Source of the DNA: Bilabrum cf. latius
Lineage: Eukaryota
Length of the DNA: 64,000 nucleotides
Assembly: GCA_965178125.1 (NCBI GenBank)
Contig: OZ237766.1
Location: forward strand, 186,001 to 250,000
Reading direction: 5' to 3'
Below, piece by piece: positions 13,201-54,508 of this stretch. The notes under the pieces are model-generated. The model ran no database searches, had not been told where the DNA came from, and worked only from the letters and a program-made list of their open reading frames with translations. Position 1 is the stretch's first letter. Each line of letters opens with the position of its first letter. The position numbers were made by a program, and so were the translations under genes.

Positions 13201-16200
13201 CGCGGCTGGCGGTATGCTGGCTGGTACAGGCTGTACTAGGGCCCCAAGCAGCAGCGCTAGCCTGGCGTCTGCTGACGGGTCCGTGAGGGCGACAGTGGCT
13301 CCGGGTCCTCTGTCGCCGCCTCTGATCGGATCGGGGCCCGCGATCGGTTCCGCAATCCGCGCGGCACCAGCCACCAGCTGGACCCCCATCGCACGGACTG
13401 GGGTCGGTTCCCTGTCTTCTGCTCGTCGGTCCTCGGGGCTGCTGCCGCCGCCAGGTGTGACGAATGCGGTGTAGGGAGCTGGCACCCCGCCTGGTGTCCT
13501 GCGCCACTCGTCACACCACCGACGGAAGGCATCCAAGGGTCTCGCCAGGAGGTCGCATCTCAGGCTGGGGAGCGGGAGGGCAGGGGGTGGGGCGGCGGCG
13601 GCAGCGGCAGCAGGAGTGGGGGAGGGCGCGGGGGGTGGGCCTGATGGTGGGCAGGCAGGGGATGGCTCGGGGAGGACGTCTCGGTAGAGGAATCGGCCCC
13701 TCTCCCGCCTGCAGCGCGGCGCCGCGCAATCGGCGATGCCTGGTTCCGCTGCGTCCCTGTCTCTCCTCTCGGACCTCCAGGCCGAGACTGAGGCTGCTGA
13801 TGCTGCTGCTGATGGTACTGATGGTACTGCCGCTGCGGGGTCTCCTGCAGCATCAGATGCAGCAACCGCTCGATTGGCGCATGGTTGGGACAGGTCGCCG
13901 CGGTTGGGTGCAATGCACGGCGGTACGCCGGGCGGCACGACCGGTGAAGTGCAAGAGGCCGATTCTTCCATAGCGCTACGACTGCCGCCAGCGCCGCGCA
14001 TCATGAGGTTCCGCGTGTGGTCATCGCAGCGAGGTGCCGCAGTACCCAGCGAGGACGTCGTGGCTGCTTCGCTCAGCGCTCGCGCAGCTCGGGTGAGGCG
14101 GGCTCGACTCCTGGCACTGCAACGGGTGGCGGGCTGGCACACTGTCCGGGATGGGGATGGGGATGGGGATGGGGATGGGGATGGGGATAGGGGTGGGGTT
14201 ATTCTACCTGCGTATGGGAGATGGCCAGCACCAGGCGTGGATGGGGGTGGGCCAGCACCAGGAGTGGAGTAGACTTAGGCTGCAGGCAGTTCTGCTGGTC
14301 CTGCTGCTGTTGCCTCTGATGCTGCTGCTGCTGCCCGCACCTTGGCGCAGACGAAGGGAGCAAGCGCCGCAGGAGGAGGAGCGTCCTCGTCCCTGAGCCT
14401 GGTGTCCTTCGGCTCAACGGACATATCCCCCAGGAGGCCAGGACACGGGAGGCCTCGCGGGACCATCGAAGGTGAAGCGTCCAGCCCGTCGAGGCCGGTG
14501 CACCGCAATTCAATGCGCCCAGATCCGGGCTTGCCTATTGCCCCGCAGCGGCTGCAGGATGACATTGATTGGAATGGGCTCGATTCGATCGTGGGAGGAG
14601 ATACGGGATCGGACGCAGGCTCATCGTCATCCGCCTCGTCGGCGACCAGCACCGCGCTCACCGACTCACTCCGTTACCGCAGGCTCGTACTCGTCACACT
14701 GCTGCGCGACAGCACCATCGAGGACCCCGCCGCCAATGCCAGAGAGCGACTCGACCAGCGGAGCAACGCTCCCAGGGTCAGACACTCGTCACGCGCGGAT
14801 GGGGTGGATCCGCAGCCGGGTGCGCTGGCCATGCAGCGAGACGTTTTTAGCAGCTCGACCGCTCTAGGCCCCGCGCAGTCGTCACACCACATCCCGCCGG
14901 CCTGGTGGCATGATACGTGGACGGCCTACTGCGCGTTTCGCTCGGTTGCGGAATCGGGATCGGCGCCGCGCGTTCCTGATGGGGGCCCGGCTTGGTCTCG
15001 CTGGGGCAGCCGCGTGCTCCCGGGTCCATCCAGCTGCACTGCTTTGCACTGCACACCCATGCAGCGCCCACGCTGGCTGCAGAGCCCCAGCGTATTCGCC
15101 CGGCGCCCCGTAGCGTTGGACGCGGCTTACCAGGCCGTTCGGGGCAGGCAGCACGCCGCCAGGGGGCCAGGGGCGGGGTATGCCTCGTGGCGGCTGAGGG
15201 CGTGGGAGGCAGGGGCGAGGGCGGCGCTTCGTAGGGCGGTTGCAACCGCGTGTGCGATCAGCTGGGTGCTGCTGCCGATTGCGCGGGCCACTGGGCTGCT
15301 AGGACGCGCATCTTCGACCTCGTCTGCGGCTGCTTCGACTTGGAACCCGTCCTCGGCACAGGCAGGTGCAAGCCAGGGGCAGGGGCAGGCGCGTCCGGGA
15401 CCTCTGCAGCCGCAGTAGCAGCCAACCGCTGCAGTCGTCACGCATGCATCCGACGGGCGATCCGTCGCCGGCAGCAGCATCATCACCGCCCACTCCGGGG
15501 CCCTGATTTTTGGCTCCGGGTCCAACTCCAGGCAGGAGGCATCCTCCGTGAGCCGCAGCGGGAGCCGCCGACGGGCGATCTACCTGGTCGTCGATGGCCT
15601 GGTTGTGCTGACGCTGAGCCGATCCATGGCGGACGAGCTCGGGCACGTGTCTTTGAGCGCAGGATCGAATCCCGGTGCACGAGATCCGGACCTGGCACCA
15701 GGATTCTTTTTGGGGCAGGTGCAGCTGAGCCGGGACTCGATCCCGCGCACGGGCTTCGTGTCTCCCCGGGTGGTGACAGTGGGCGCTTCGCTGCGGAGCA
15801 GGGGTTTGGCGAGCGGTTCTGGGCAGGGTACCGGCGGGGCATCGCACTCGTCACACCCTCCATCGTGGGGAGTCGCTTGCTTCAAGCGGGTGCTGCAGCT
15901 GGGGGGACGGGCAGACGTCGTGATTCCGCGGTCCGTGCAAACCGGAACCGCGATGAACATCGAGTTCCGGTGGGTTGCGGCCAGCGCCGAGCCGCTCCGA
16001 AACCTCGTGCACTCGTCACACTAGGGGGCCCGCCGCGGCGGTCTCGCGTGCTGCATCGCCCCCTCGGAGGCCGTGGCCCCTTCCCTTCCCCCATCTGCGT
16101 GGACTCTGGCCCGCACTGCACTGCCGCGCTGGATGAAGAACCGCGATGGCACAAATGCGACCAACGACACCAGCGGCGCCGCGCACTTTGTCCCCCCTTC

Positions 16201-17380
16201 GGTTCCGCTGCCGGACCAGAACGCCTCCTTGAGCGATCTATGGCCCTCCCTGCACCCCCCACTGGCCGTGGGCCCCAGCCACAGGGCCATGAGGACCGAC
16301 GGGGGCTGGCTGTCCACCGTGCCGCCCCACGAAGTGGTGGGCGTGGGTGTACCAGGGTCGTACAGAGGACAGGCGCCGCGCGATTTGGAATAGGCTTCCG
16401 CAATGGCCTGGTATCCCGGGCCGCTCATGCGCGTGGTGCTGGAGGGTGCCATGGTGAGGTTCCGCTTCGCATTCCAGGACGGCGCGGCGCCGCCCCCGGC
16501 CAGGGACACCAGTGTGAATGAATCTTGGAGAACAAGCGCAGCGGTTGCAACCACTCCTCCCCGCCAGGGGGGGGCAGGGTAGAAGATTCCTGACGCTGCA
16601 ACACCAACGTCCGCTCTAGCCCTGTCTCAGGCCGGGACACCCGGCACCCCTGCGTCCTCCTTGACCCCCGCACGGGGTCACCAGCGCGGCAAATCCAGGA
16701 GCCGAAACCAGTCCACGGATCTCCTGACGAGCAGGGTCACTCTTGGCTGGTACCTGCAGCTCGTGCTTACGTCAGATGGGGGCCCGCGGCCAGTCGCAGT
16801 TGCCGATCACGGTGATTTGGACCGAAGGCAAGGGCAAGATCTCGGACTGCCTCGCCCGGTGGGTCCGTGGGGAGACACGGGAGCGCCCAACTCCTTGCCA
16901 CTCGTCACACCCTCGCACTCCTGGCGCACCCCCAAGGTGTCCCGCATGCTCGTCACACCTTCGCGCGTGCGGCCGGCGGCTGGCGCTGCTTTCCTGAGGG
17001 CCAGCCCGCTGGGGCTGCATTGGATCGAGAACCGGTCTCCAGACGTGCTGGGGTATGGCCAGAATGCGTAGCGGTGTTCAGTCATCACAGGTGAAATCGG
17101 CGGGGCGGGTGCCCAGGGACCAGCAGCAGCTCCAGCTCTGGCCCGGGTGGGCAGCACTGGAGGGGGCAGGAATGGTGCTGGAGGGTCGGAGGGAGGCGCG
17201 GCTTCCGATGACGGTCGAATCGCAGTTGCGGCCGGGCGGCAGGAGGCGACTGCGGATGCCGCCGCGGGTGCGATTCGTGCTGCTCTGGGGGAGTTTTCGG
17301 GCGTGTGCTCGCTCTGCTGGGAGGTTGTGCAGGATGCGATGGAGGAGGCAGTGCGTAGGGCGAAAGACAGTAGGGATTGA
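1295..17380 (+). CDS. DEPDC5: GATOR1 subunit DEPDC5/IML1 orthologue; giant (about 5,361 aa), intronless, about 29 in-frame TAG read as sense
   Basis: Track ORFs 1538, 2027, 2312, 3785, 6074 ... 17147 share one frame and are joined only by TAG; ATG at 1295, TGA at 17378-17380. Family motifs in order: NEDLMVHPDVFP; QRYLNREDM; LLVQVSREMW; YEDFY; GNFL*AINL...FEHTGQ...TKLRMMDNGIGCDLVCLSKPPLH; SGNRSRWQHIFP; NWPGLL*PAVLPLTTGYMP; EMVGQRLMHEYQLV; EFRWVAAS. Confidence 0.92.
14147..14188. repeat. (GGGGAT)n coding microsatellite encoding a Gly-Asp run in DEPDC5
   Basis: Directly visible. Confidence 0.9.
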
Positions 17381-22624: not shown

Positions 22625-23012
22625 TGTTCTTGCGTAAAGGAGTTTGCTGGGATAAATCGGAGATGTACAGCTACTTTTTCGCGTTGCAATTGTGCCGGGT
22701 GGCCCGCTCCCGCATGATCTAGTCAAACCGGAACCAGCTGCCAAAACCGGGAGTCTTGGTCCGGACACGGATCTCGTTGTACAGGTGCCCAACGAGCTCA
22801 CAAGAACGCCATCTGCCCTCCAAAACGATACGTTTATACAACATTGTATTGATCTAGGGTCAGACTGCCCTAGATTACTCAATAACGTGGCAACGACGAA
22901 ATACTGGCGTGGCCCAGTTGGATCGGAAGGCCCTCTATCTATCCGAATCAGTCAAGCGTTTGGAGTATTATCAGCGAATTGTCCAGCATTGGCTGCCAAT
23001 AACGAAAGCATC

Positions 23013-24041
23013 ATGGCATCAGCTGGATCTGAAAAGTCAAAGGCGGTGCCACTCATGAAGTTCCCGCGCACGCCGCACTTGGCAGACCTCGGAGGCAAGG
23101 CGGTCACAAGAGACGACTTGCTTTTCTCAAAGAAGGATGCCGAGAAGTGGATAGGAGATCACGTCATTACTGTGGAAGAAAAGGTTGACGGGGCCAACCT
23201 GGGCTTCTCCATCTGCCCGGACACGCTCAAGATCATGGTGCAGAACCGCTCCCACTTCGTAAACAGCTCCACCGCGAAGCAGTTCGCTAGGCTCGATGAG
23301 TGGCTGGACAAACACGCCATGGAGCTGCATGCGGTGCTCAAACCCGGCAGGCACGTCCTATTCGGCGAATGGCTCGCCCTCCAGCACTCGGTCCACTACA
23401 CTGCCCTCCCCGACGTGTTCCTGGCCTTTGACGTGTTCGACAAGAAAAAAAGAAGGTTCCTTAGCAAGGCCAGGAGGGATCGACTGCTTGCCAAAACCAC
23501 CGTGCGCGCAGTCAGGTGCATTGCGCGGCGGCGCTTCCCAGGCGGCGTGAAAGAGATCGCCGCACTGTTGGAGGCCACTCCAAGCGGGTACTGCGAGAGA
23601 GAGGGGGGGGAGAGGGGTGTCCCCATGGAGGGGGTCTACCTCCGGAGGGAGTGTGTGACGAGTGATGATGCCGGGAGAGGTGCAGAGACCCGCGCTGATG
23701 GGAGGGCGGCTGATGCATCGCCAGCTTCTGCAGCTGCGGCTGTGAGAGAGGTCGTGCCTGTGGCGCCTGTGGTTGCTGCTGCCAGTAAGGCTGGATCTGG
23801 GACAGGTGCCGGGGCCGCGGCCGGCCCAGGGGCAAGAGCGGGCAAGGCAGAAGCAGATGATAGACAGGGTGGAGACAAAGGCTATGACAGGGAAGACGAG
23901 CCCAGGTGGCTAGAAAGCCGCTGCAAGCTGGTGAGAGCCGAGTTCGTGGCCGGGATCGACGGCCACTGGAGCAAGGGCGTGGCTGTCAAGAACAAGGTGC
24001 TCGTTGGGGAGGACAGGGAATCATGGGGGGACACGGAGTGA
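23013..24041 (+). CDS. ATP-dependent RNA ligase-family nucleotidyltransferase (stand-alone adenylation domain)
   Basis: KFPRTPHL, motif I EEKVDGAN, VQNRS, motif III LFGEW, IIIa FLAFDVFD, IV EGVYLR, V CKLVRAEF...HWSK; ends TGA. Confidence 0.85.
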   Translation: MASAGSEKSKAVPLMKFPRTPHLADLGGKAVTRDDLLFSKKDAEKWIGDHVITVEEKVDGANLGFSICPDTLKIMVQNRSHFVNSSTAKQFARLDEWLDKHAMELHAVLKPGRHVLFGEWLALQHSVHYTALPDVFLAFDVFDKKKRRFLSKARRDRLLAKTTVRAVRCIARRRFPGGVKEIAALLEATPSGYCEREGGERGVPMEGVYLRRECVTSDDAGRGAETRADGRAADASPASAAAAVREVVPVAPVVAAASKAGSGTGAGAAAGPGARAGKAEADDRQGGDKGYDREDEPRWLESRCKLVRAEFVAGIDGHWSKGVAVKNKVLVGEDRESWGDTE

Positions 24042-24166
24042 GAGAGCATTCCTTCAAGGGTGTCATGGAGCAGGAGGTTGCAGCACGCAAAATTGCAATC
24101 GTCACGATTCGGAGCATCGCGCAGAGCACTTTCCGTTGGTTGTCGCCTCGCACGGTTGCGGGCACC

Positions 24167-27100
24167 ATGTCCGGTGCAGTAGACACTCAGCCCGATGAAT
24201 CGTCTGAAATATTGAATATATCTGGAAATGGAGCCGCTGCAGGCTCAGAGACGGGTGACACCGGCGGCGCAGTCTCCAACTCGCCTCGAAACCCAACGGT
24301 AGAGACAGATGCGCCGAGCCGCCCTTCAGACGACAAGAAGCAAGCACCATCCCCGGCTGCACTAGCTAGACAGAAGGCTGCTGCCGAAGCATTGGAAATG
24401 AGGCAGAGGATGCAGTAGGCGCAAGCAGCGCTGGTGCTTCCACTCGCAACTATCCACCGACAGTTGTGCGTCCTTGCGGTAAAGTCCCATGGTACCAAGC
24501 CCCGTGCAGATGCAACCGTGTACGCAACTGCTGTCGTCGAATCTCTCCTTCACATGCTTCTGACACACGCCGTTCGCCTGGCGATGGATGCCGCCAACAG
24601 CCGGTACCGCCGGCCGAATCGCCCCGAAGACCGCATGGGGGGCGGGTACGTGCAGCTGGCACTGCGCCGAGCTCCCGTGGTCTCGGAATTGTTTTCGAAT
24701 TGGAAGCCATTGCGAGAATTGAGCGAGCATTTCCTGGATCAGCACACGAGGAGCGCGCTGGAGGCAGACGGCGAAACCGCGGGAACCTCCAGCGGGATGA
24801 TCCGGGGAACTGCGGGGGGGCCGGGCAGCCCCGCTGCTACCGGTGGTCCTGGGTCCGGTCTGGATGGTGTGACGAGTGCGGTTGCGGGCACGGCAGAGCG
24901 TCTCGCGAGTGCAGGGTCATCTGCCCGTCGCGTGGATTCGGCTGGCCTGCCCTCTGTGGTGGAGGGGGAGGATGACGAGGACGAAGAAGAGGATGAAGAT
25001 GAGGAGGAGGAGGGGGAGGGAGGCGATGAGGGGCGCGCGAGCGGAGCAGCATCGGCTGGTACTGGCGCCTCTCCAAAGAGTCCAGCAGCTTCTGCAGCAA
25101 CGACAGCAGCAACATCGGCCGCTGGTCCGGAATCGAGCGGCGGTCCGTCTAGCGGAACCGGCGCCGGGCAATCCGATATCATGACCCCCTCGGGGGTCCC
25201 CCTGCCCCCCACTGATGAAGAGGTGGCCAGGGCACAAGAAGCCAGCGCGGCGCGATGGTCCCGCAAGCCGGGCGATTCCATCGCTGAGGTGGAGGCTGCC
25301 TCCCTGCTGCAGTCCGCGCACCCGTGCCTCATGCCGGACCACGACTGTTCCCTGCTCGTGGCGGCCATCGGCAGGCAGCTGCTGCAGGAGGTCGCGAGGA
25401 GGGCGGGTATCATCGGTTCCGCAGGCGCCGCGCCTTCGACGGTTCCGCAGACGGGCGCCGCGCTGGACGCGCACAGGATTGCTGCCGCCATCCGCGGCTG
25501 GCTGCCGTCCCCTGCCCTCAAGAAAGCCGTGGCTCTTGGGTCCTTTGCCATGCAGGTGTTCGCATACGTGTGGAAGCCTCCGCCTGCTGTGGCGGTGCGG
25601 CTCTGCATGGTGAAGGGGCACGGGGTGCAGGGCACTGCAGCGGTCGAGGTGCCCGCTGACGTCCCGCTAGCACCGGCCCTTGCCGAGCAGCTCTCGTACC
25701 GATTCCGGATCCAGCCCAAGGAGGCAGTTCTGGTGTGGAGGGGCTAGCCGCTGCCCACCCGAGGCGGTGGAGGTGCAGGTGCAGGTGCCGGTCTGGGCTC
25801 CCCTGGGGGGTCGTCGACTGCATCGCATGGTGGTGCGCCCTCCGCCCAGGACCTGGTCATGCCGCCCGCCTGCGACGTATTCGTCGTCAGGAAGGCGCAA
25901 TGGGCGAACGTTCGCCGAGAGTTCGCTCGACTGGGCCTCGCAACGAGTACCCGGTCCAACACGGGCACTGTGCGCGGCATCCGGAGAGGGGCCCAGTCCA
26001 AGGTCAGGGGCATGCGGACGGACCCATACAGCTACCTGTCTCCGCCTCGTCAGGCGAGGGGCACGTCCGACGGCATGGGTCCGGGGAGTGGTGGTCCCTC
26101 GGGGAGTGGTGGTCGAAGAAACGGCCGAAAGCGACGCAGGGAGAACACCGAGGGTGGCCAATCCGGCGGTAGGGCGGGCGAGGGAGCGGAAGGAGGCCCC
26201 GACTTGCAGGCATCCACTGGTGGATTCAGGCCCGGTCCCAGGGCCCTCCGTGCCGGCGACCCGGAATCGAAATCGAAGCACGGGTCACCCGCAGGTAGGG
26301 GAAGGGGAAGGGGCCGAGGCGGGGGCGGGGGCAACCTGCCTCGGCTCAGGGGCTCGAAACGCGCCGTACCCTCCGGCAGCAAAGCCGGCTCTGGGCCCAG
26401 GCTCATTGCCAGCCCAGAGGCGGGGCACGTGGATGCTTCAGCCGTGGATGGCCTGCCCAGCGCGCGTGGGGCGGAGGACTACGGTAAGAGGTTTCAGGGG
26501 CGCGCGGGGGACGCGAGCCTGTAGGGTGCATCGCATGGTGGTAGCCAAGGCCGGGGGCACCGCCGGCGCAGGGGCCCGGGGTCCGGCGTGTCTTCCTCTG
26601 GGTACGGCCAGCAGTCTCCTTCGGCTCCGAATCGCTGGAAGAGGATGAGGAAGAAAGATCAAACGGTAGCGGAGAGGAAAGAGAGGGAGAAGCAGCAGGG
26701 GGAACCGTCGGGTGCATCGCATGGGGGTGGAAGGGGTAGGCGCGGGCGGGGCCGTGGTCGCAGCCGGCTGGCAGGGGCGGGTGCTTCCGTCGTCGGCGGC
26801 AGCCCCACTCGTCACACCGACCACCCTTACGGCCGGGGCATCCGTGCGGGTGCATCGCACGGTGGTGCAGGCCGACCGGCCAGGGACTGGCGCGCGCGTC
26901 CCCGCGTCGCTTAGAAAGCGACTGCCGCCCTGCTGCAGTCCGTAGAGGGCGCTGTGCCTCGGTTCGAACAGGCGCTTGAGGCGCTGAAGAGAGCTAAAGA
27001 GGCGGCTGGGGGAGTAACAAATACCGGTTATGGCGGTGGCGATGGTGCCGATTCAACTAGCGCGCAGGATGCCCGGCCCTCGACTGCAGCCATGAGCGGC

Positions 27101-27916
27101 CTCTCCCAGGAGGTACTGGCGGTCAGGGATGCACTTGGGCCTCTGCAGGAAGCGGCGGAGGGTGCCATGGCGCTGATCCGGAAGATGGAGAGAGCGGGGC
27201 TTGTTGGGGAACAGGCTGTGCTAGGTGGCAGGGGCAAGGATAGAGGATCGGGCAAAGTTGACGGGACCGACCGGGAACCCAAGGAGCTTGCCAGCGGTGA
27301 GGATCCGTCCTAGGCTGCACTGCAGGGCAGTGCACCCAAGGAGGATCCGTCCCCCGCCATCACCCCGGTGTACCAGGCAACGCGTTCCCCAAGTCCGGGC
27401 GAGCATTCCGACTCCGAGTCGCGGAGACCCAGCAAGCCCGGTGGTGGGGGCAATGGGTCTGCTGCAGCGAGTGGGCTCGTGGTTGCAACCGGCACTGGAG
27501 GAGGGAGTGCTGCGCCAAAACAGCCGAATGAACCTCTTGACTCCGGTATTACCCAATCTGATTCCGAGTCGGTTGCAAGCGGGTCACCTCTCGGTGCATC
27601 TAATGGAGCCTCCAGCGAGCCCGATGGGGGTAGCAGCGAGGGGCAGGAAGCTGCCGGGGTGACCAGCGGCGAGGATACAGCGCAAGGGCCCGGAGGTGAT
27701 GATCCAGGGAGATAGGACGCATCGAGCCCCGCCCCACAGGCGGCCGATGTTTAGATGGATGCGCTTGAAGCGGCTGGTGCAGGCCTGGGGGAGGCCAGCG
27801 CAGACAGCAGCGATGTTGGAGGAGGCATCGAGGAAGGCAACCGGGCCGCGGAGGACGGCGGCCTGGGGGCTGCAGCGGCTGCTGTCAGCCTGAGTGCGGA
27901 TAGTTTGGACGGATGA
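24167..27916 (+). CDS. Histone-fold doublet (H2A-like then H2B-like) fused to a ubiquitin-like domain, with a long disordered tail; about 1,249 aa, 7 in-frame TAG
   Basis: Single frame from caccATG 24167 to TGA 27914-27916, interrupted only by TAG (24416, 25745, 26522, 26912, 27311, 27713, 27752). H2A-like about 24419-24703; acidic tract about 24960-25030; H2B-like about 25277-25573; Ubl-like about 25586-25900. Confidence 0.75.
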
Positions 27917-27983
27917 TCTGTGATTCTGGCGCGGTGTTTTCCATGCGAGCATCATCTCTGTTGCAAAACTGCGAGAGATTTCG

Positions 27984-30508
27984 GGGGGGATCTGATATTT
28001 TGTGGACTCAACTCAAAAGCGCACGCTATCACGAAGAAACATCTGGAACGAGGGCCCGGGACCTACCAGACTTCACGCTTCAGCTGCAATGGCCTAAACC
28101 ACCTAAGCTCCACCCTGGGGACCCATTTCCCCATGGAGAGCGTCAGCATTCACGTTCCCTCCGGCGCCCGCTGCCGGCACCCCGTCCTGCTGCCCGTTCT
28201 GAGCCAACCCTGCCTTGACGTTGGCGATCGCCACGGCGAGGTTGTTGTTTTCGGCTGCCCCTACAGCCAGGCTGGCAAAGTCCTCTCGGATCGCCCTTGC
28301 GAGCGCCCGTTTGGCCTTCGCTGCAGCCCTCCTCGATCCCTTCGAGACAAAATCGAGGATCCTTGAGTGGTCCTGCATGACCCGTGAGTACATAGTGTGG
28401 TACACACGCTGTTCCCCGCGCACGTGCTGGTGCTAGGCGGCAACAGAGAGGCGAGCCTTTGCCACGGAAGACCACGAGAGGCGCGCGTTGGCCGGACGAG
28501 TCGGAACCCGCCGCCCTTTGTCCTCCTGCCTCTTCTTCCGCAGCTTATCGAGCACCTACAGGAACTCGACCGACTTCTCCCCGATCCCCCCCAACACGTC
28601 CACCACAAAGGGTACGACCCGCACGCCACTGCGTACCGCCCCTTTCTGCGTCCTCACGGTCCCAGGACACCACTTGTCTTCTCCTCCGATCCGGACGCCG
28701 AGCGCTCCGAGGTCGACGGGCCTGCCGTAGCTGGCCAGCTTCGTGGCATGCGCGGCCCGCAGAGCAGACCCCTCTTGCCAGTCGCTGCCAATCCTCCACG
28801 ACGAGCGGTCCCACCGGTAAGTTGCCGCAGTGGAATCAACCACCGTGACATCGATGAGATAAGCCGTCCCCTCGTGCTCAAAGAATAGGTCGCCTCGTGG
28901 CACGAGCGGACCGCGCCGACCCGGCAGCCGGGCCACTTGGCCCTCTGGCTCCCGGATAGGGCGTCTGCCCGTGGCCTCGCGGACCACCTGCTCGAGCACG
29001 TTGAGCACCCGGAAGTGCCTGCGGCCTGGAAGGCCTCCGCAGACACGCTTGTCCTTGCACGTGGCACCGTGGCGAACTGACTAGATCAGTTCGACTACCT
29101 TGCCCTGCTTCCGGCACCCCGGGCAGATCTGCGTGACGCGCCACGCCTCCCCACATGCACCGTGCGTTGCCCCAAGAGGTTGTGGGGGACAGCTGCACGG
29201 CTGTGGGATGGCGAGGCGCTGGCAGAACATGCCCCGGGCATCTTCAGGCTGGACTCGGCTCAGGACAGAGAGCGGCGCATGCAGCCAAGACCCGGCTCCT
29301 TGGGACCTGGCGGCGCGGATTGTGGCTCGCGCCACTCCTGCGTACTCTCTGGTGACTGCATCGACTGGAGCGAGTCTGTCGTGCGCAAGCGGAGATGAGG
29401 CATCCCAGAGGAGCCTCTCCACCTGCACTCGCTCAGCCAGTGCCGTCACATGGCTCTGGTTGTGCCCTCCTGCGGCACCTTCGAGAAAACGAATAACCGC
29501 CTGCGATGCGGTGGGTGCCGGCTGCTCCCCAGCCAGCTGCCTCGTCACCCATGCCCGAAGGTCCTTCACCTCCAGGCGCCAGGGTTCAGTGGCCCCACCG
29601 CACAGCTCCATACGGGCTGCCTTCTCGGCTGGGCTGCCCAGGAGTTCCGAAGTGCGGGCTGTGTCCCACACCATACCATAGCGTGGGGGGACGTCAGCCT
29701 CCGGAACAAGTGGAAGCAACGGACTCGGGAAACCAGCCATCCCGAAATTGTCTTGCTTCCCCTCTTGTACGAGTCTCCCGTACTTCGAGATTGCGGTCAT
29801 CACAGTGTCCACAAGGGAGTTCAGGCGCGCGGTGCGCCCTCGCAGTGGGTTCAGCAGAGGGGGTGCCTCCCCGGCACCTGCCGCCGCACCTTCCCCGACC
29901 TCCTCCGCCGGGTCCCACTGGTTGAGCGCCACCTGCAGGTGTGGCAGGTTGAAGTCGCGTGCTACCCTCGCCAACCAGGGCCACACATCCAACAACCCCC
30001 CGACGCACATTGCCTCCCGGGTTAAATCGGCAGGCACGAGCCCCACTCCGAGGCCCCCACGGGCAACGGATAGCGGACCCAGCACGTCCAACACCTGTCT
30101 CTGGGCCTGCGAGAGAGCGCTTACACGCATCCCTGTCAGGAACTCCAGAAACGCTCCCTACACCTCCTTCAAATGGGGTGTCACCCCGTCCTTGAGCTCG
30201 GGCAAGAGGCACCCGCTCCTGTGCACGTGCGTCCACGCCGGCACAACGCACCGGGCAAACAGTGCGCGCGCACTGATTGGGTCCAGGTAGGCCAGGCGAA
30301 AAGCCTGAACCACCGTCTCTTCCAAGCGTCCCTTCAAGACTTGTTCGGCCACTCCGACGTCGGTCCCTACCGGGACGCCCAGGATCCTCAGCCCATGCTC
30401 GTGGACCACTCCTTCGAGCCTATCCTCCTGGTCTGGCGCCAATAGGTGGACCAGGCGCTAATAGGTGGCTCGGGAGGGGGAGAAGAACGACGTTTTCTTC
30501 TAGTTGAT
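27984..30508 (-). mobile_element. 5'-truncated non-LTR retrotransposon, CRE-like, with restriction-like endonuclease; 10-bp TSD
   Basis: Direct repeat AGAGATTTCG at 27974-27983 and 30509-30518 flanks the element. ORF homology starts exactly at the 5' boundary. Confidence 0.85.
28073..30508 (-). pseudogene. Retrotransposon ORF remnant: end of RT, thumb, Cys/His knuckle and REL endonuclease; RT catalytic core missing; 8 in-frame TAG
   Basis: IN*KKT (RT motif 6), GLRILGVPVG (motif 7), LSVARGGLG, GSWLHAP, Cys/His cluster...RRH, RGDL...IDVTV...KLASY, PFVVDVLGGIG, RLSVAA*; ends TGA at 28073. Confidence 0.8.
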
Positions 30509-30592
30509 AGAGATTTCGTTGAAATGTTTGTGGCGTGAAGTTTTATGTAATTCAGATTGGGGCAGCGCCAATAACTTCATGTTCACATCAAC

Positions 30593-32762
<2,170 letters not shown>

Positions 32763-33183
32763 TTGCGATCACCGTCGATGCTATAGTCTCGTGTGCTTGG
32801 TCTCGTGTGCTCGGTGCGTGATTTCGCCACAGACCACATGCTTTTGGGGGGCCTTCGATTTCGATTGGATGACCCGAGATACCTTTCTGATCGCCAAAAC
32901 TGCTTCATGTTATCCCTCTGCCCTCCTTCAAATGTGGACCCGGGCACCACGGAACCACCGTGACGTCTGCGCGGCGCCGACCCCCCCAAGGCAACACTTG
33001 TTTCATAGGCAGCACACCAAAGGGATCACACATTTGGTACTATTGTTTTGAAGTACCGTTACACTATTGTAGTGGGAACAACTGCTGAAGCCCTTCGAAG
33101 GCGTCACTTAAACCATCGCGCTTGCAAATAAGCTCACAACCAGAACTGCAGCCTTGCCAAAGTCTGCTAGCACGACACCGTGC

Positions 33184-36100
33184 ATGGATCCGAAGCAAAA
33201 CAAAAGCGAGATAGAGATGGACAAGCGCTAGACTGGTGCAGCTGGACTGGTGCAGCTCGCTACCCCGGGTCCACCAAGATCAGACATTGAGATCTTGGAC
33301 GACCACTTTAAGGACATTAAGGCAGAGCTTCAGGACCTTGGTATCCTATCTGGCTCTGAAAACAATTCGAAAGTAGTATCTTTGATTGCTGCAGTGATTC
33401 TTGGCTCGAGGTCTTGGCCGGAGCAGCCTTCCGAGAAGCAGCCCAAGCCCGATTATCTCGGGATACAAAGACCATCCACGGCAATGATCAAAGCAGCCAA
33501 GAAGCTGAGGATGGTATTGGACCCAAGTACGTCGCAATCTAGCAGCGCTGGTTCAAGAACATCGGATCAGCGAGCTGCCCGACCCGACAGAGGCGAAAAC
33601 CCCAGGCGCACCACGAAGCACGATCATCGCAATGGACCCTAGGATAACCAGCCGGCCCAGTCTCCAGACCTGGATCGTGGCCGGTCAAGTGGCAACCGCT
33701 CCGATCCGCGATCCGACTCGATCGAGACGGTCAACGCCGGTCCCACGGGCGAGCAGCAGGTGCACCTCGGAACCAGGGAGTGGTTCATGCGGGTCACAGA
33801 GGCAGCGTCATGCGCCTGCATGTGCGAGCCGGGCAAGGTAAGAAGCAAGGTGTGCTGCGGCTACTGCCGCAGACGACTAGCGCCTTGCTGCGACTGCGTG
33901 CGCACGTGTTGCTGCAACTTCGGGCCAAGATACGCGCTAGGCCACTCCACGGCCATGTACAGCAAGCAGGAGGGGCTGGTTGTGTCCACCAACATGCACT
34001 CGGAGCAGACCAAGATGGTTCTGGGCATCACGTTTGTGCTGTTCGGTCTGATGTGGTTGGTCGTGCTGGTAGTGTCTCTCGTGCTGAGGCTGAGCATACC
34101 GGAGTACAGAGACGCGTAGGGAGAGAACCTGGCTCTGGAACAGAATGTCGTGTACATTTTCGTCCTGTTCTTGACTGATGTCTTCCCGGGCTCTTTTCGG
34201 TACGACACAACAGTCGCGATGGTTGTGTCCATCCTGGTCGTTGTCGCGCAATGCGTGCGGTACGTGCTTCGGAGGTCACCCGACCAGCTGCAGCCCAATA
34301 CCGTATCTGTGTCAGACCGTCTGCTGAGCATCGCGCCCGTAAGTGCCCATCGTTTTTTCGTTTCTTACAAGTGGGAACACCCAAAGGGGTCGCTTGTCGA
34401 GATTCAGGGTGTCAACACAGAATCCCACAATGCAGACGACAGGACCAAGCTGCCAACTGAGATGCTTGGATCACGTGGGCCTGATCCAACGCCAGGACTA
34501 AAGCAGTACCTCAGTTCAACAGCGGGTGCCGAGGGCCTCGCTCGCAGCCTTGCACGTGCCCTCCCCAACGCGTGGGTGGACGTCATGAAGCTGCCCAACG
34601 CCGCATCGCTTCATGCTTCCATCTACACGGACCTGAAAGGGGCCATGTCCACCATCGTGCTGATGACACCTGGATATTTGGGGAGCGTGAACTGCAATTT
34701 CGAGCTGCTGTGTCTCCTGAGGATGCACGCCGATGCTATCAGCAGGGGGGAGCGGTCTCGCCTGACCCAGGCGTCCAGGGTGGTGGTGTACCTCCCTGTG
34801 GATGGGGACATGCCTGGACTTAAGTGGCCAGAGTGGACTGATACGGCTGATATCTGGAAAAAGTACAACCGCGAAAGGATCAAGTCATGCTTGCTAGCGA
34901 TGGGTGTGTCAGTGGTAGAGACTGGCTACGATTTGTTGCGGCACATCCACGACCGCATGTTCATGGGGATACGAGGGGACTTGGTGCAGGCACCAAAGCA
35001 CAGCGCAGATGAATAGGACTCAGACTCAGTGGCGAGCTTGCACGCCTGGTGGAGCACAGCCGGCAGGGTTAGGGCTTCGGCCAAATCGGCCGTGGCTGGG
35101 ACAATCGTGCCTGTTGAAATGCCCGGTGGATATGAAGCTCAATGCTGTGCCCTGTGCCCGGCTACGTTTTCCTGCTCCGGGCGCGCGTGCCCTCCCCCGA
35201 AGGCAACGTATGCTGGCAATTTATGGATCGCCCCTGATGGATCCAGCCGGGGCCGCATGCACCGGGTGGCGCCCGGGCTGTGGTTCATAGTGTCGATCAC
35301 TGCGACGCTCTTGTACGGGGTAGTTCACATTGTTTGGGAGGACAGGAAGCTGAATGTCGGGTGGTTGAATGGGATTGACCCGCCGCTGCTTGGCACGGCG
35401 TTAGTGCTGTTGATCATGTCGTGGCTCCTTGCTGACGGAGCTGCTGACCTCAATTGGAGGTACCAGCACAGCCCGTGCATGAACAAGATCTTGCTGGCAG
35501 GGCAGCTGCAGCACGGTTCCAAGAAAGGCTCCTCTAGCTCTAAAGTCTCAGGAGTTGAGAGCTGGGGCGAGAGCAAATCGACAAGGCAAATTACTGGTAG
35601 TGAGGGGACTATTGCTCGGATCCAGGCCTCGCACGAGTATGTGGGTCACCACGTTCGCTACAAACTCAGGTTTGCCTTCATGATGGGTGGTGCAGATGAG
35701 GCAAGCATCCTAGTGGAGAAGGATACGAGAGAGAAGGAGATGAATGCAAAGCAGACATCTGGCAAGGCCGGCGGCAAGTCAGCCTCCGTCCCTTCCAGAC
35801 AGCAGTCTACAGAGCTTCCTATGACGACGGAGCAGGCCATGTCCATTGTGCGGCCTGCTGCAGCTGTAAATACCTGCATGATGCTGCGCGAGCTCGACTT
35901 CTAGGCGATGGAGTACACGTTCCACCCTGGGTCCCGCAATTGGATTCGAAACAGAACGTCTGCCGGGAGCGATACGGATGATATTGATGACGAGCAAGGT
36001 GGTGCAGGCCAGGCATCGCTCGCTCGCTCATCTGTAAGGCGTAGTGGTGACCTAGACCATTCCACCCAGTCTCCACTGGCCCTTCTGAGCCGCGACAACG

Positions 36101-36840
36101 AAGCGACCGGCGGCTCACACAACGGTGGTGCGGCAAGTGCTGCACTTGCCTCCATCAACCATGCCGCCAGCAGCGGCTCGGTTCAAGACGGTGCCCCGGG
36201 AGAGTCACCGGCCGCCCAGTCACCCCGCGCCGTGTTTGCCCACCAATCCGGAGGCGGAGGCGGGATCGGGCAGATCCGTCGCCTCGACACTTCAGCAGCG
36301 TTTGTGGATGCCGTACGTGACGAGGCGGATATTAAGCCTGGTGTGATATACTGCTTCGTGATCTCCACAGTGGCTCAGGCGGAGGCATATCTTGACTTCA
36401 TCTACGGCAGGGATAAAGCGCAGATCGTGCTGATGGTGCACAGCTCGGTGCCGCGCGAAGTTAACAGGATATACGATGCACTCTACGTGGGATACGATAC
36501 CGACAAACGGAGCGACCAGGAAAAACTGCCGCAGGACAGCGTTAAGTCTTGCATTTCGTACATGTGCTGGAGGTTCGGTCCATCTGTATGCTATAGCCAG
36601 TGCCCCTCCTGCTGCCCGTCTTGCTTCTGCGGGTGCTGCTGCTGGCTGGGCATGTGCTGTGGCTTCTGCGGCTACTCGCGGGACAGCGAGTTCAAATCGG
36701 AGGATAGGTGCTGCAATGGCAGGTGGCGTTGCTGCGGAGGGCTGCCTAGTTCGCGTGTTCCCCCCCAAAATCAGGATTTGGCGCAGAATCTGCTCGAGGC
36801 TCTATCGTCCAAGGTGGCGAGTGCCCTGCATCCGGGCTGA
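33184..36840 (+). CDS. Multi-pass membrane protein with TIR domain and Cys-rich segments, copy 1 (about 1,218 aa, 5 in-frame TAG)
   Basis: One frame with TAG at 33229, 33640, 34117, 35014 and 35902; ends TGA. About 3 hydrophobic helices precede FFVSYKW...LARSLARAL...WVDV...IVLMTPGYLGSVNCNFEL (TIR_2-like); two more helices follow. Confidence 0.8.
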
Positions 36841-37722: not shown

Positions 37723-37996
37723 GTATTTCTCCATCACCGGACCGGTGACAACGGCAAATCCACTCACTTCACAGATAACCTGGGTTGCGCATTGATCACA
37801 GCCTATTCGAAACATTGTGTAGTTTTTGCTACTATCTGGATCAAAGTACTCGAGAGTCACTGCCGTGGTTGCCCCGGGGCCTCACTGCAAAATCGGTATT
37901 TACGAAGCCGGCGTAACAAGCGAGCTTCTACCATTGCAGTGTAGATTATTTTACGATTCTATGCTTGAAATCGATTTAGACTAAGGAAAGAACAGT

Positions 37997-40900
37997 ATGG
38001 TCTCGCGCTTAGCTGGAACGGCTAGACAGGTGCAACTAAACACGGGTGGTACTACTGAAAAGGCGATCCTGAGCACTTTTTTCGAGAACACCTAGAAGGA
38101 GCTGATCGGACTCAAAGTTCTTGAACGAATGGGTTCGAAGGAATTGATCGTTGCAATGATGCTTGGTTCAAGATCTTGGCCGCAAGACAAATTCAAAGTA
38201 GGCCCTGCTCTCACTCCAATTGCTCAGAATGGGACAAGTGTACAGTAGACCGCAATGCACGAAGCAGCTGAGAAATTGAATGACGTGTTGAGAACAGAAG
38301 ACTCTGCTCATAGAAAGGATGCGTCCACAGCCTCAGACAAGCAAGACACGAGCTCGACGAAGGGATACGACCCCAACGAATCCAACAAAAATCAGCCGAG
38401 CAAATCTCCATGCCATGCACCGTAGATGGAGAACGCATCTTCTTCAGAGCGCCAGCATGCGAACGACTTCGTCGAACACGGCCACTCCAGTCGCAACCGC
38501 TCGGACCCAAGAGCCGACTCGATCGAGACCGTCAACGCCGGCCCCACGGGCGAGCAGCAGGTACACCTCGGAACCAGGGAGTGGTTCATGCGGGTCACAG
38601 AGGCAGCGTCATGCGCCTGCATGTGCGAGCCGGGCAAGGAAGGAAGCAAGGTATGCTGCGGGTAGTTGCGAAGGTGCCTCGCCCCGACATGCGACTGCGT
38701 GCGCACTTGTTGCTGCAACTGCGGGCCAAGATACGCGCTAGGCCACTCCACGGCCATGTACAGCAAGCAGGAAGGGCTGGTTGTGTCCACCAACATGCAC
38801 TCGGAGCAGACCAAGATGGTTCTGGGCATCACGTTTGTGCTCTTTGCCTTACTCTGGCTGGCTGCACTCGTGGTGTCTCTCGTGCTGAGGCTCACCGTCT
38901 CGGAGTACAGAGACGCGGCGGGCGACGGCCTAGCTCTGAACCAAAACGTGGTGTATATCCTAGTTCTTCTCGTCGCAGAGACATTTCCGGGCTCTTTTCG
39001 GTACGACACCACAGTCGCGATGGTTGTGTCCATCCTGGTTTTTATCGCGCAATGCGTGCGATACATGCTCATGAGGTCATACGACCAGCTGCAGCCCACC
39101 ACAGTATCCGTATCAGACCGATATCTGGGAATTGCGCCAGTGACAGCTCATCGCTTCTTTGTGTCCTATAAGTGGGGGCATCCAAGCAGTAGGAGCAAGC
39201 TGCGGAATGCCAATCGCAGCTCCACGGCAGGTGCCGAGGGCCTCGCTCGCAGCCTGGTACGGGCCCTCCCCAACGCGTGGGTGGACGTCATGAAGCTGCC
39301 CAACGCCGCATCGCTTCACGCTTCCATCTACACGGACCTGAAAGGGGCCATGTCCACCATCGTGCTGATGACTCCTGGATATTTGGGGAGCGTGAACTGC
39401 TTGTTCGAATTCTTGTGCCTCCTGAGGATGCACGCCGATGCCATCAACAGAGGGGAGCGGTCTCGCCTGACCCAGGCGTCCAGGGTGGTGGTGTACCTCC
39501 CTGTGGATGGGGACATGCCTGGACTCAAGTGGCCTGAATGGACTGATACGGCTGATATCTGCAAAAAGTACAACCGCGAAAGGATCAAGTCATGCTTGCT
39601 AGCGATGGGTGTGTCTGTGGTAGAGACTGGCTACGATTTGTTGCGTCACATCCACGACCGCATGTTCATGGGGATGCGAGGTGCCTTGATGCAGGCACGG
39701 GCTCCAGTGCAAGACTGGGGAGGGGCGGGAGGCAATACCAAAGAACACTCAGACCCAGGGGGTCCTCTTATGCACGATGCAGATGAATAGGACTCAGACT
39801 CAGTGGCGAGCTTGCACGCCTGGTGGAGCACAGCCGGCAGGGTCAGGGCTTCGGCCAAATCGGCCGTGGCTGGGACAATCGTGCCTGTTGAAATACCCTT
39901 AAATATTGCAGATTCCACTCAGGGTTGCTGCAGCCCGTGCCTGGCCGCATTCTCCTGCTCCGGGCATGTGTGCCCCCCGCCCAGGGCAATCTACGCTGGA
40001 AATCTTTGGATCGCCTGGGACGGGTCGAGTTCGGGCAAAATTTGCCGTGTGGCGCCCGGGCTGTGGTTTCTGGTGACGATCGCAGCGACGCTTGCGTACG
40101 GAGTAGCTCACATTGTTTGGGAGGACAGGAAGCTGAATGTCGGGTGGTTGAATGGGATTGATCCGCCGCTGCTTGGCACGGCGTTAGTGCTGTTGATCAT
40201 GTCGTGGCTCCTTGCTGACGGAGCTGCTGACCTCAATTGGAGGTACCAGCACAGCCCGTGCATGAACAAGATCTTGCTGGCAAGGTAGCTGCAGCCCGCA
40301 TACAAGATCAAGTCGACTAGCTCTGAGGTCCCTACAGTGGCTAGCCAAGGTGGTAATACACCTGAAGAGCATGGTAACGGCGCCGACGAGCCCGTCGCTC
40401 GTCACCACCACCTCAGGTTTGCATTCATGATGGGGGGCAGCTGTGAAACAGCAGAGTCAATCGTGTAGAACGACGTGAATAGGAAGCAACGGAGGAGGGA
40501 GAGTGAAAGGATGCCGAATACGTGGGCGAACGCCAAGCTGTCACCAGACAAAGCCGCTGGCAAGTCAACGTGTGCCGCAGCTGTATCGGAGCATGCAGAG
40601 CCACAAGTTTTGAAAGACGATGCTAAGGCTATTGTGCGTCCTAACGCCGTCGTTAATGTGTGTCAAATGCTTCGCGAGCTTGAGTTCGAGACACATGAGT
40701 ACCACTTTGACCTCGAGGACTCGAGCTGGAAGGAGAAAAGCGGCGCACACTAGAAAGCAGGCCAAACGTCGCCGAAAAAAATTCCATGCGGTCCCCTCTG
40801 CATGACCAAGGTGTTCGAGGTTTGAGGTCGATTAACGGTGGTAGCGGCGGTGGTGCGGCAGGTGCATCCGGATCGCCTTACTCTGTCCCCTTACTATCAG

Positions 40901-41506
40901 CCTCAATCAATGACGTTAACAGCGGCAAGCAAGACGGTGTCCCAGGGGAACCACTAGTCGCTGTATCGCCACAAAATACTAGTACTGGAAGTAGTTCTGA
41001 GGAGCCCCGGAAGGGCGCTTCGCGGTCTTCGGTAAACTTTGTGAAGAACGGAAAGGATCTCAAGCCCGGTATGATCTACTGTTTTGTGATCTCCACCGTG
41101 GCCCAGGCGAAGGCGTACTTGAAATCAATCTACGGATAGGACAACGCGCAGGTCGTGCTGTTGGTACACAATGAGGTGGCCGAGGAGTTGAATGTGCTGT
41201 TCGACGTCCTTCACGTGGGATACAAGACGGATAGGCGGAGTGAAGCAGAGAAGCGGCCACACCGTTGCTTTTATGCTTTCACCTAGTATATGTGCTGGCG
41301 CTTTGGTCCATCTGTGTGCTACACCCAGTGCCCATCATGCTGCCCTTCGTGTTTCTGCGGGTGCTGCTGCAAGTGCTGCAGTAGCAGGTGCTGTTGCAGT
41401 TGCGTATCGTGCAAGGCAGGTGCCCCCCCCCCAAAATCAGGATTTGGCGCAGAATCTGCTCGAGGCTCTATCGTCCAAGGTGGCGAGTGCCCTGCATCCG
41501 GGCTAA
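37997..41506 (+). CDS. Transmembrane TIR protein, copy 2 (tandem paralogue); two apparent frameshifts at homopolymers
   Basis: Collinear with copy 1, with many in-frame TAG. The frame changes near the A-run at 40775-40781 and again at the C-run at 41423-41432. Ends ALHPG-TAA where copy 1 ends ALHPG-TGA. Confidence 0.75.
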
Positions 41507-41605
41507 ACGCGGCCCCGTGTTGCATCATATTTGCCTGTCCGGCTTACTTGCTTGCTGACCTTAGGTTGCCTAGAAGGATCCGGTTGCGGGTGATCCATGC
41601 CAGGA

Positions 41606-41656
41606 TGGTGGGCTGGTGAAGAAGCAGTCGTTCGGGGTGAAGCCCAGTGGTTCCGC
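41606..41656 (-). repeat. 51-bp dispersed repeat, inverted relative to 50158-50208
   Basis: 47/51 identity by manual alignment. Confidence 0.85.
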
Positions 41657-54400: not shown

Positions 54401-54508
54401 ACGATCATCTTTTTCTGTGGGGGCTCGGCCTCTGGTGCTTCGCGGGCTGGCAAGGACGCACCCTCGGCTGATGTTCGCGCAGGCGGCGCGCACGCCGAGG
54501 TGGCATGA
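51401..54508 (+). CDS. CD36/LIMP-2 (scavenger receptor class B) family protein with enlarged lumenal domain; first exon unresolved
   Basis: Acceptor cgcag at 51400, N-terminal TM, YISNITNPEAALYGGARP...PYAFRKY, HGSFIDVDPVSGRSIGAARRL, QWVEES, C-terminal TM. One TAG (51926) joins the two track ORFs; TGA at 54508. Confidence 0.8.

Follow-up and report, generated by a model that had tools for sequence, protein, structure and literature searches.

We analysed a window of 64,000 nucleotides from the genome of Bilabrum cf. latius (assembly GCA_965178125.1, contig OZ237766.1, positions 186,001 to 250,000 of the forward strand; positions given below are those of the window), with the emphasis on a coding frame on its forward strand at 24167..27916, which comprises 1249 codons and a TGA stop codon and contains seven in-frame TAG codons read as sense. 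The frame represents a genuine, unspliced gene, and its organism translates TAG as an amino acid. Sequence comparisons indicate that its product very probably unites, in one chain, an H2A-type histone fold, an acidic linker, an H2B-type histone fold, a ubiquitin-like domain (Ubl) and an arginine-rich segment. This product is a member of a conserved family without annotation in any database, which includes the oomycetes and several deep lineages. As to its role, we lean, at somewhat better than an even chance, towards a scaffold that carries a double histone fold and acts outside the nucleosome.

The frame ends with the TGA codon at 27914-27916 and harbours TAG at codons 84, 527, 786, 916, 1049, 1183 and 1196, with no in-frame TAA or TGA before the terminator. 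From its own base composition, 19.3 TGA and TAA codons would be expected (probability of none, P = 4e-9), not one of 2000 shuffles of the same stretch was free of in-frame TAA and TGA, and the remaining five frames of 24167-27916 contain 7-23 of these two codons apiece. The pattern extends to the window as a whole, which is tiled by 12 long frames that hold 106 in-frame TAG codons in total and never an internal TAA, with TGA as the terminator of nine and TAA as that of three; examples of TAG-containing frames are those at 1277-17377, 23888-27913 and 46091-49567. Because these 12 frames hold so many in-frame TAG codons, lack internal TAA and end in TGA or TAA, TAG is a sense codon window-wide in the source organism, with TAA and TGA remaining as stops. 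Reassignment of UAG alone is described as rare among nuclear codes, the first two cases having been reported in 2017 according to PMC5304391.

The residue inserted at TAG would be either glutamine or glutamate, the sequence evidence being split between the two. In favour of glutamine, a 96%-identical relative shows Q at the position of TAG84 and terminates at the point that corresponds to CAG192 of the window, CAG occupies one paralogue position, and Q is enriched 1.33-fold around TAG codons. In favour of glutamate, human DEPDC5 carries E at a conserved TAG position of its homologue in the window, a receiver domain likewise carries E, and GAG occupies two paralogue positions. No tRNA gene was found within the 64-kb window.

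Were TAG instead a true stop, the locus would be either a series of separate short genes or a pseudogene, and the one long protein would be an artefact of read-through. The standard code does cut the frame seven times, and gene callers have split the genes of close relatives of this protein (database entries P0002, P0003 and P0006); yet this interpretation is scarcely credible, given the absence of TAA and TGA across 1249 codons, the recurrence of the same pattern in 12 frames, including a 5367-codon DEPDC5 homologue with conserved blocks flanking its TAG codons, and the conserved sequence that runs across both TAG84 and TAG527. Furthermore, standard-code orthologues hold all of the domains in one protein, and since organisms using the standard code carry all parts in this way, the fusion is not a product of read-through. 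A preliminary description of the locus, made from the sequence alone, had stated that it is visible as one protein only after TAG read-through. Read-through is indeed needed to reach the N-terminal tail, to complete the Ubl and to obtain whatever lies downstream of it, but a single TAG-free stretch at 24419-25744 (a 437-residue open reading frame) already covers both histone-like parts, the linker between them and the Ubl up to two thirds of its length. That the two folds lie in one polypeptide is thus apparent both from this stretch and from the single standard-code proteins of relatives. The peptides quoted in the same description were all recovered where they had been placed, namely AQAALVLPL (residue 85), YVQLALRR (residue 161), the E/D tract (from residue 266), LLQSAHP (residue 380), GSFAMQVF (residue 458), VAVRLCMV (residue 475) and DVFVVRKA (residue 570).

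The start codon would be either that at 24167 or a second in-frame ATG at 24065 (24 bases past the stop of an upstream RNA-ligase gene); residues are numbered here from 24167. A public contig of 2530 letters (X6 record 11) is colinear with 24159-26688 of the window, bar one skipped triplet repeat, and spans TAG84, TAG527 and all three domains; as its molecule type is not on record, it shows continuity rather than a transcript. The sequencing runs with this locus all consist of contigs; none is listed as RNA, and three may be RNA. Separately, joints in read contigs from runs X1 (DNA-type) and X6 that skip 118-1966 bases all land at 26845-26849 with sides of 20-23 letters, and these were taken as low-complexity repeat artefacts rather than introns.

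Relatives were sought with residues 1-618 of the window protein against 1.84 billion representative proteins, and 14 were retrieved at E<=1e-3, including four with E below 1e-30. Three of the 14 (P0002, P0003 and P0006, of 110-429 residues) are fragments from close relatives, with 55-96% identity in the regions aligned, whose genes have evidently been cut into pieces by database gene callers, and the remainder are complete proteins 478-1120 residues long. One of these, P0010, is a 'hypothetical protein' of Phytophthora ramorum, and a search with it returned 42 relatives. All 26 that carry an organism name come from oomycetes, namely Phytophthora, Nothophytophthora, Pythium, Globisporangium and Lagenidium. 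None of the 42 has a precomputed Pfam domain, and the 26 oomycete records are labelled only hypothetical, uncharacterised or unnamed. A full-text literature search found no description of the family, and a Protein Atlas query with the oomycete orthologue P0010 gave no usable match, nor does the Atlas contain a model for it. Word-based homologue searches yielded two rows with the family alignment and three with the relative P0004, probably owing to low-complexity words. The preliminary description had proposed looking for the architecture in the proteomes of protists and giant viruses: oomycete proteins do carry all of its parts, but searches of viral contigs yielded no relative. Nor were related loci found in JGI metagenomes.

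A phylogeny was built on 29 rows of the 32-row alignment, after the removal of three short fragments. The window protein grouped with P0004, P0005 and P0007 (support 99/96), this group in turn with P0008 and P0009 (support 98/94), whilst P0012 stood by itself and the oomycetes formed a clade of 22 rows (support 100/100). The first 620 residues of the window protein follow a fixed order of H2A-type fold, variable acidic linker, H2B-type fold, Ubl and arginine-rich segment; the order of blocks is identical in every full-length aligned member, and landmark motifs occurred in order in all eight members checked. Spacing is similarly regular, with 27-30 residues from H2A alpha3 to a helix marked by an 'FLD' motif, 11-17 residues (median 11) from the H2B C-terminal helix to the first strand of the Ubl, and medians of 15 residues from the Ubl to W579 and 10 from W579 to G590. 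The linker between the folds varies from 41 to 172 residues across the family, that of the window protein being the longest. Identities to P0004 amounted to 41/120 in the H2A-like block, 48/116 in the H2B-like block, 22/41 in the arginine-rich segment and 23/103 in the linker.

The H2A-type histone fold was assigned by profile matches to residues 74-200 (24386..24766), comprising alphaN, alpha1 to alpha3 and alphaC, followed by the 'FLD' helix, a family-specific element in which F189 and D191 are nearly invariant; TAG84 (24416-24418) lies inside this segment. When the H2A-like segment alone was compared with the PDB, all 17 matches at E<=10 were H2A (best E 0.22). The 32-row family profile matched H2A at E 4.5e-6, with solved H2A chains at 1e-5 to 1e-6, and matched engineered H2B-H2A fusion chains at E 6.6e-9 in two stretches, one per fold, profile positions 7-102 aligning with the H2A part and 183-266 with H2B alpha1 to alphaC; among the matches listed, 60 of 60 were H2A or H2B-H2A fusions. 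Pairwise comparisons with hhalign used references recovered from viral contigs by short-motif scans, consisting of ten giant-virus H2B-H2A doublets, four H2B genes and twelve ubiquitin units. The ten doublets come from giant-virus-type contigs of IMG/VR (L001, L004, L007-L009, L011-L014 and L018 of the motif-scan set) and are 214-241 residues long, and the four contigs with single H2B genes, which have long N-terminal tails, measure 1.8-2.5 Mb. The H2A-like block matched the viral H2A half with Prob 95.1 (E 3e-8), as against Prob 0.2 (E 0.36) for the H2B half, and the whole family matched the viral doublets over H2A alpha2 to alphaC with Prob 88.3 (E 2.9e-6). The glutamine of the 'HLQLA' motif in H2A alpha3 is kept in 27 of 30 members.

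The H2B-type fold, also assigned by profile matches, occupies residues 355-470 (25229..25576) with alpha1, alpha2, alpha3 and alphaC; it opens with a conserved W364..D370 lead-in, and an 'HP' motif (P386) ends alpha1. The proline of this motif is present in 29 of 29 members, and the window protein has SAHP at residues 383-386. With the H2A part removed, a 10-row sub-profile matched H2B in the PDB at E 0.003-0.02, over alpha1 to alphaC, and 60 of 60 among the matches listed were H2B, or ubiquitin, SUMO or parkin Ubl. By hhalign, the sub-alignment matched the viral doublets with Prob 84.4 (E 7e-6) over 88 columns (H2B alpha1 to alphaC), and the H2B-like block matched the H2B half with Prob 94.2 (E 1.1e-7) over 89 columns, versus Prob 0.6 (E 0.097) for the H2A half. 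The best PDB match of the Phytophthora protein P0010 was likewise H2B (E 0.071). The parallels with H2A and with H2B that had been drawn by eye in the preliminary description are therefore borne out at the level of sequence, by profile matches to the PDB in each case together with type-specific hhalign results.

Profile matches to the ubiquitin family place the Ubl at residues 471-577 (25577..25897). Against the PDB, the sub-profile matched single-domain chains of ubiquitin variants, parkin Ubl and SUMO at E 0.002-0.008, the E-values for poly-ubiquitin chains in this search being inflated by their repeats. A 30-row Ubl block aligned by hhalign with ubiquitin residues 13-72 (Prob 81.9, E 1.1e-5). 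A glycine-rich insert (residues ~531-560) precedes the last strand, an insert that is lineage-variable at 11-52 residues, and the domain contains TAG527 (25745-25747). The domain lacks a C-terminal Gly-Gly, in that the chain runs on (DVFVVRKAQW...) into the arginine-rich segment in all aligned members. The profile and hhalign matches agree with the earlier suggestion that a beta-grasp-like domain directly follows the H2B C-terminal helix, the Ubl being predicted to begin 11 residues past that helix in most members. The segment that comes directly after it (residues 578-620; 25898..26026), with a net charge of +8, has the pattern W...RR..ARRG, in which W579, R583, R584, A587, R588 and G590 are nearly invariant. 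Conservation in the family is strongest in this block, not in the histone folds, and no relative of the segment is known. Its comparison by hhalign with histones and ubiquitin gave nothing (E 0.88-0.93).

Controls for these assignments were negative. Alignments with shuffled columns gave E>=0.29 in 10 of 10 cases for the H2A-like block, E>=0.15 in 10 of 10 for the H2B-like block and E>=0.11 in 20 of 20 for the Ubl, the last figure being the floor for all three sets; cross-domain controls gave E 0.17-0.69, ubiquitin against histones E 0.32, and the linker resembled neither histones nor ubiquitin (E 0.94 and 0.96). The profile searches that had been proposed for a histone fold and a Ubl thus returned candidate matches for both. 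A Chou-Fasman-type average over the alignment gave a pattern of helices and strands that fits the domain model, but the method is crude.

Several results nonetheless weigh against the domain assignments. Pfam searches with the whole window protein and its segments gave nothing significant, and no member reached a curated cut-off: the Histone model (PF00125) scored E 0.076 in the window protein (13.7 bits versus a cut-off of 26.4), and was seen in two of 32 members at E>=0.034 and in none of 22 further members; Rad60-SLD was seen in five of 32 members (best E 0.0014), all below the cut-off, and the ubiquitin model in one of 32 and in one of the 22 further members (E 0.013, 15.7 bits versus a cut-off of 25.4). 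Single-sequence searches were without significance when taken alone (best H2A E 0.22), and with the H2B/Ubl part alone such a search of the PDB matched neither histone nor ubiquitin. The profile E-values for H2B and the Ubl against the PDB are marginal (0.002-0.02), and the 10-row sub-alignment matched ubiquitin weakly by hhalign (Prob 37.9, E 3.4e-4). The hhalign E-values refer to single pairwise comparisons without secondary-structure scoring, and the H2B references were chosen by a motif partly shared with the family, although the alignment spans 89 columns. Oomycetes dominate the alignments (22 of 32 rows), and the effective number of sequences (Neff) is low, at 3.2-3.7. Finally, the histone handshake, the beta-grasp fold and the docking of the Ubl are each predictions from sequence.

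These points bear on whether the resemblance could be due to chance, the protein being a helical, low-complexity one with some other fold. No Pfam model exceeded its cut-off, single-sequence E-values were above 0.05, the domain calls derive from sequence, and a comparison of the two halves with each other by hhalign gave Prob 1.2, so that internal similarity lends no support. Against this stand three independent domain calls in the right order and register, exclusive match lists (17 of 17, then 60 of 60 and 60 of 60 among the matches listed), a two-by-two comparison of H2A and H2B that is type-specific, and the negative linker, cross-domain and shuffled controls, and we consider a chance resemblance very improbable.

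Outside the conserved blocks, the N-terminal tail (residues 1-73; 24167..24385) is rich in Ser, Thr, Pro and acidic residues and is not conserved, with 0-2 identities to relatives over at most nine aligned positions. The linker between the folds (residues 201-354; 24767..25228) has a net charge of -23 and includes the E/D tract at residues 266-288 (24962-25030), which is encoded by a GGA-type triplet repeat; a conserved acidic stretch, SVVEE..DDE, marks the linkers of the window protein's clade. The two folds themselves are mildly basic, with net charges of +5 and +4. Downstream of the arginine-rich segment lies a basic region of low-complexity composition (residues 621-905; 26027..26881; net charge +35) with the motifs RGRGRGRGGG (residue 711), SSSGYGQQ (residue 809) and RGRGRG (residue 859) and with TAG786 (26522-26524). 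This is followed by two helical segments (residues 906-1020; 26882..27226; TAG916 at 26912-26914) that by alignment are conserved, being common to P0004, P0005 and P0007; they probably form a coiled coil or oligomerisation element, and no solved relative was found for them in the PDB. The chain ends in an acidic tail rich in Ser and Gly (residues 1021-1249; 27227..27913; net charge -23), which is specific to the window protein and holds TAG1049, TAG1183 and TAG1196.

The surfaces that histones use in the nucleosome were mapped by placing the family on a near-canonical viral doublet and counting residues over the alignment, with the acidic-patch residues and R77, E56 and K120 numbered as in the nucleosome literature. 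The equivalent of H2A E56 is E in 23 of 23 members. Acidic residues were found at the equivalents of H2A E61 in 0 of 24 members, E64 in 1 of 24, D90 in 3 of 30 and E91 in 5 of 30, and of H2B E105 in 1 of 15 and E113 in 0 of 30, and H2A E92 is partly kept (acidic in 20 of 30). Six of the eight acidic-patch positions are therefore not conserved in the family, and the window protein keeps one of the eight, the E56 equivalent. The DNA-contact position equivalent to H2A R77 is basic in 20 of 26 members. At the equivalent of H2B K120 the window protein has Val; Arg occupies this position in 22 of 30 members, and Lys was counted in none. The Pfam model for the H2A docking domain, Histone_H2A_C, gave no match at E<=10 in segments of the window protein and none at E<=1 in 32 members.

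Nucleosomal H2A and H2B are the nearest sequences to the family, each half of which is type-specific and keeps the Gln of 'HLQLA' or the Pro of 'HP', respectively. They differ from the window protein in that the latter is one chain embedded in a multidomain protein of 1249 residues, and the family lacks long basic tails, having instead an acidic or neutral tail and an acidic linker. There is also a likeness to mono-ubiquitylated H2B (H2Bub1), in that the predicted ubiquitin fold lies beside the C-terminal helix of the H2B fold, and a 188-residue H2B chain of PDB entry 8grq matched the family sub-profile in two stretches (E 1.7e-6). In H2Bub1, however, a reversible isopeptide bond joins the C-terminus of ubiquitin to a lysine, whereas in the window family the Ubl, which has no Gly-Gly end, would be attached by its N-terminus, through a permanent peptide bond, to the end of the H2B helix, and the residue equivalent to K120 is not Lys. 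The Ubl of parkin and the SUMO-like domains of Rad60/NIP45 are likewise non-conjugatable domains built into larger proteins, and they figure among the top matches in the PDB and in Pfam, respectively (E 0.006-0.009 for parkin Ubl; Rad60-SLD in the five members noted above); the Ubl of the window family differs from them in being internal, with a histone fold directly before it and the arginine-rich segment after it.

The doublets of giant viruses (Marseilleviridae and other Nucleocytoviricota) share with the family the presence of H2A- and H2B-type folds in one polypeptide, and both of its halves match the ten reference doublets. The order of the folds differs, being H2B then H2A in 10 of 10 viral doublets and H2A then H2B in the window family. 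The viral proteins, moreover, have a short connector (judged by eye) where the family has 41-172 residues, they lack a Ubl, and their sequence is near-canonical, as in the acidic-patch stretch NDEEL.

On this evidence the protein might be a nucleosomal variant, in which the doublet replaces the H2A-H2B dimer in some nucleosomes and the Ubl serves as a permanent, encoded counterpart of H2B mono-ubiquitylation. Such a role would fit the specific H2A or H2B type of each half, as opposed to a generic histone fold, the fact that nucleosomal H2A and H2B are the closest relatives of known structure, and the near-constant start of the Ubl 11 residues past the H2B helix, beside the position aligned with K120. 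The E56 and R77 equivalents point the same way and count against a function outside the nucleosome, and the doublets of giant viruses are described as forming nucleosome-like particles (PMC8357426). In opposition, most of the acidic patch is not conserved; no docking-domain family was detected, a family-specific helix following alphaC instead; the folds are only mildly basic; some 630 further residues of low-complexity sequence and coiled coil are attached; the Ubl is joined through its N-terminus by a peptide bond and not through its C-terminus to a lysine side chain; and the residue at the K120 position of the window protein is Val. We regard a nucleosomal variant as decidedly unlikely, and the poor conservation of the acidic patch together with the lack of a docking-domain match also weakens the notion of a mimic of the nucleosome face. 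More doubtful still is the specific proposal that a vertically inherited stramenopile doublet enters chromatin in a nucleosomal or sub-nucleosomal particle, with its Ubl acting as a non-erasable equivalent of H2B ubiquitylation that is read by the same machinery; if true, it would be a histone mark written in the genome instead of by enzymes.

A non-nucleosomal module is favoured on account of the lack of conservation at most positions of the acidic patch and the failure to detect an H2A docking domain; granted the architecture, we give a scaffold function of this kind an even chance or slightly more. The H2A-like and H2B-like folds are predicted from their sequences to pair within the chain as an H2A-H2B-like pseudodimer, against which the Ubl and arginine-rich segment may be held rigidly. 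The histone module would then serve for binding away from the nucleosome, in the manner of Sos1 or ABTB2, and the acidic linker possibly shields the basic face of the pseudodimer in cis. Together, the disordered low-complexity chain of RGG/SYGQ type and the terminal coiled coil would make the protein a multivalent, probably nuclear scaffold associated with nucleic acid or chromatin, oligomerising through its C-terminus. Against this account it should be said that the grounds for the scaffold, its nuclear location and the cis-shielding linker are those of composition and analogy.

The nearest functional precedents are collected in a 2026 review (PMC13088155), which describes archaeal and bacterial doublets, the H domain of Sos, ABTB2, SPT3 and the animal HSIH-DHF proteins, and whose Table 1 lists double histone folds for archaea, bacteria, viruses, animals, fungi and Capsaspora. 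The Sos1 H domain, ABTB2/Cca3, SPT3 and the HSIH-DHF proteins are, in its descriptions, similarly H2A/H2B-like pseudodimers that lie outside the nucleosome and inside larger multidomain proteins. The Sos H domain is given there as H2B-like then H2A-like, and a few animal HSIH-DHF proteins as having the order H2A then H2B. The cellular families in that table are animal, fungal or from Capsaspora, with none from a stramenopile, and none of the families, as described there, has a ubiquitin-like domain attached; the review does not use the word 'ubiquitin' at all. The window family is set apart from Sos1, ABTB2 and HSIH-DHF by these published descriptions. A double-histone-fold protein with a ubiquitin-like partner, in a stramenopile lineage, would accordingly appear to be new. 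It would add to the known double histone folds a protist-wide lineage (at least the oomycetes and several deep lineages) with the rarer H2A-then-H2B order, and a partner not previously reported, a Ubl fused where H2B is normally ubiquitylated.

Alternatively, the pseudodimer could be a decoy or bait that imitates free H2A-H2B and so binds or titrates chaperones, importins or readers of the ubiquitin mark, with the Ubl as a second handle. This explanation shares the same architecture, and chaperones cover H2A-H2B by acidic segments, which the SVVEE..DDE stretch of the linker resembles, so that a chaperone-like interaction in cis would be compatible with it; the tree also indicates that the family sequence is conserved across deep clades. 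Its binding role is, however, a predicted one, the surface used by known binders (the acidic patch) is mostly not conserved, and the strongest conservation of the family lies in the arginine-rich segment, outside the histone folds. We consider a decoy unlikely.

For the scaffold, as for these alternatives, the family offers a natural experiment in which a ubiquitin fold may be held beside an H2A-H2B surface, and it supplies a testable domain model for unannotated oomycete proteins, many of the organisms concerned being crop pathogens. There is also a practical warning, in that TAG recoding hides such genes and gene callers cut those of relatives into fragments.

Among the neighbouring genes, a homologue of IML1/DEPDC5 (GATOR1) occupies a single frame of 5367 codons with 29 TAG codons at 1277-17377 on the forward strand (Pfam IML1, E 7e-61). 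It matched DEPDC5 in the PDB at E 1e-41 and lower, contains very long low-complexity inserts and exceeds the human DEPDC5 chain (1603 residues) more than threefold in length. The immediate upstream neighbour, an RNA-ligase-family gene of 461 codons without TAG (22656-24038, forward strand; Pfam RNA_ligase, E 1.6e-27), ends 24 bases before the first possible start of the histone-doublet gene. Just downstream of the latter (27927-28500 onward), the summed contig depth in the DNA-type run X1 rises from ~15 to ~2000 and contigs break, which suggests a high-copy repeat; a search for repeats around 27800-33200 found none. A frame of 935 codons on the minus strand at 28076-30880 has no Pfam match.

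Further along are two paralogous, membrane-spanning, Cys-rich genes on the forward strand at 33112-36837 and 37985-40822, with 607 of 883 aligned residues identical and a faint TIR_2 match (E 0.006) that is below the cut-off. The C-terminal part of the second continues in another frame at 40711-41616 (forward strand), and this paralogue thus has a frameshift or an intron. A PDB search found no solved relative for the central region of these TIR-like genes, and one with a CD36-family gene (51395-54505, forward strand, by Pfam) was likewise without result. Pfam also identified a hybrid histidine kinase with HATPase_c and receiver domains and 12 TAG codons (46091-49567, minus strand) and a DDE_1 transposase frame of pogo/Tigger type (55253-56830, minus strand). 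The latter seems to run on upstream in a second, overlapping frame at 56505-57629 on the same strand, and the two frames may represent a decayed or frameshifted transposon copy. An Rfam scan of the window gave no result, nor did further Pfam searches with the other frames. With its main frames apparently free of introns and a G+C content of ~60%, the window looks like part of a compact protist genome.

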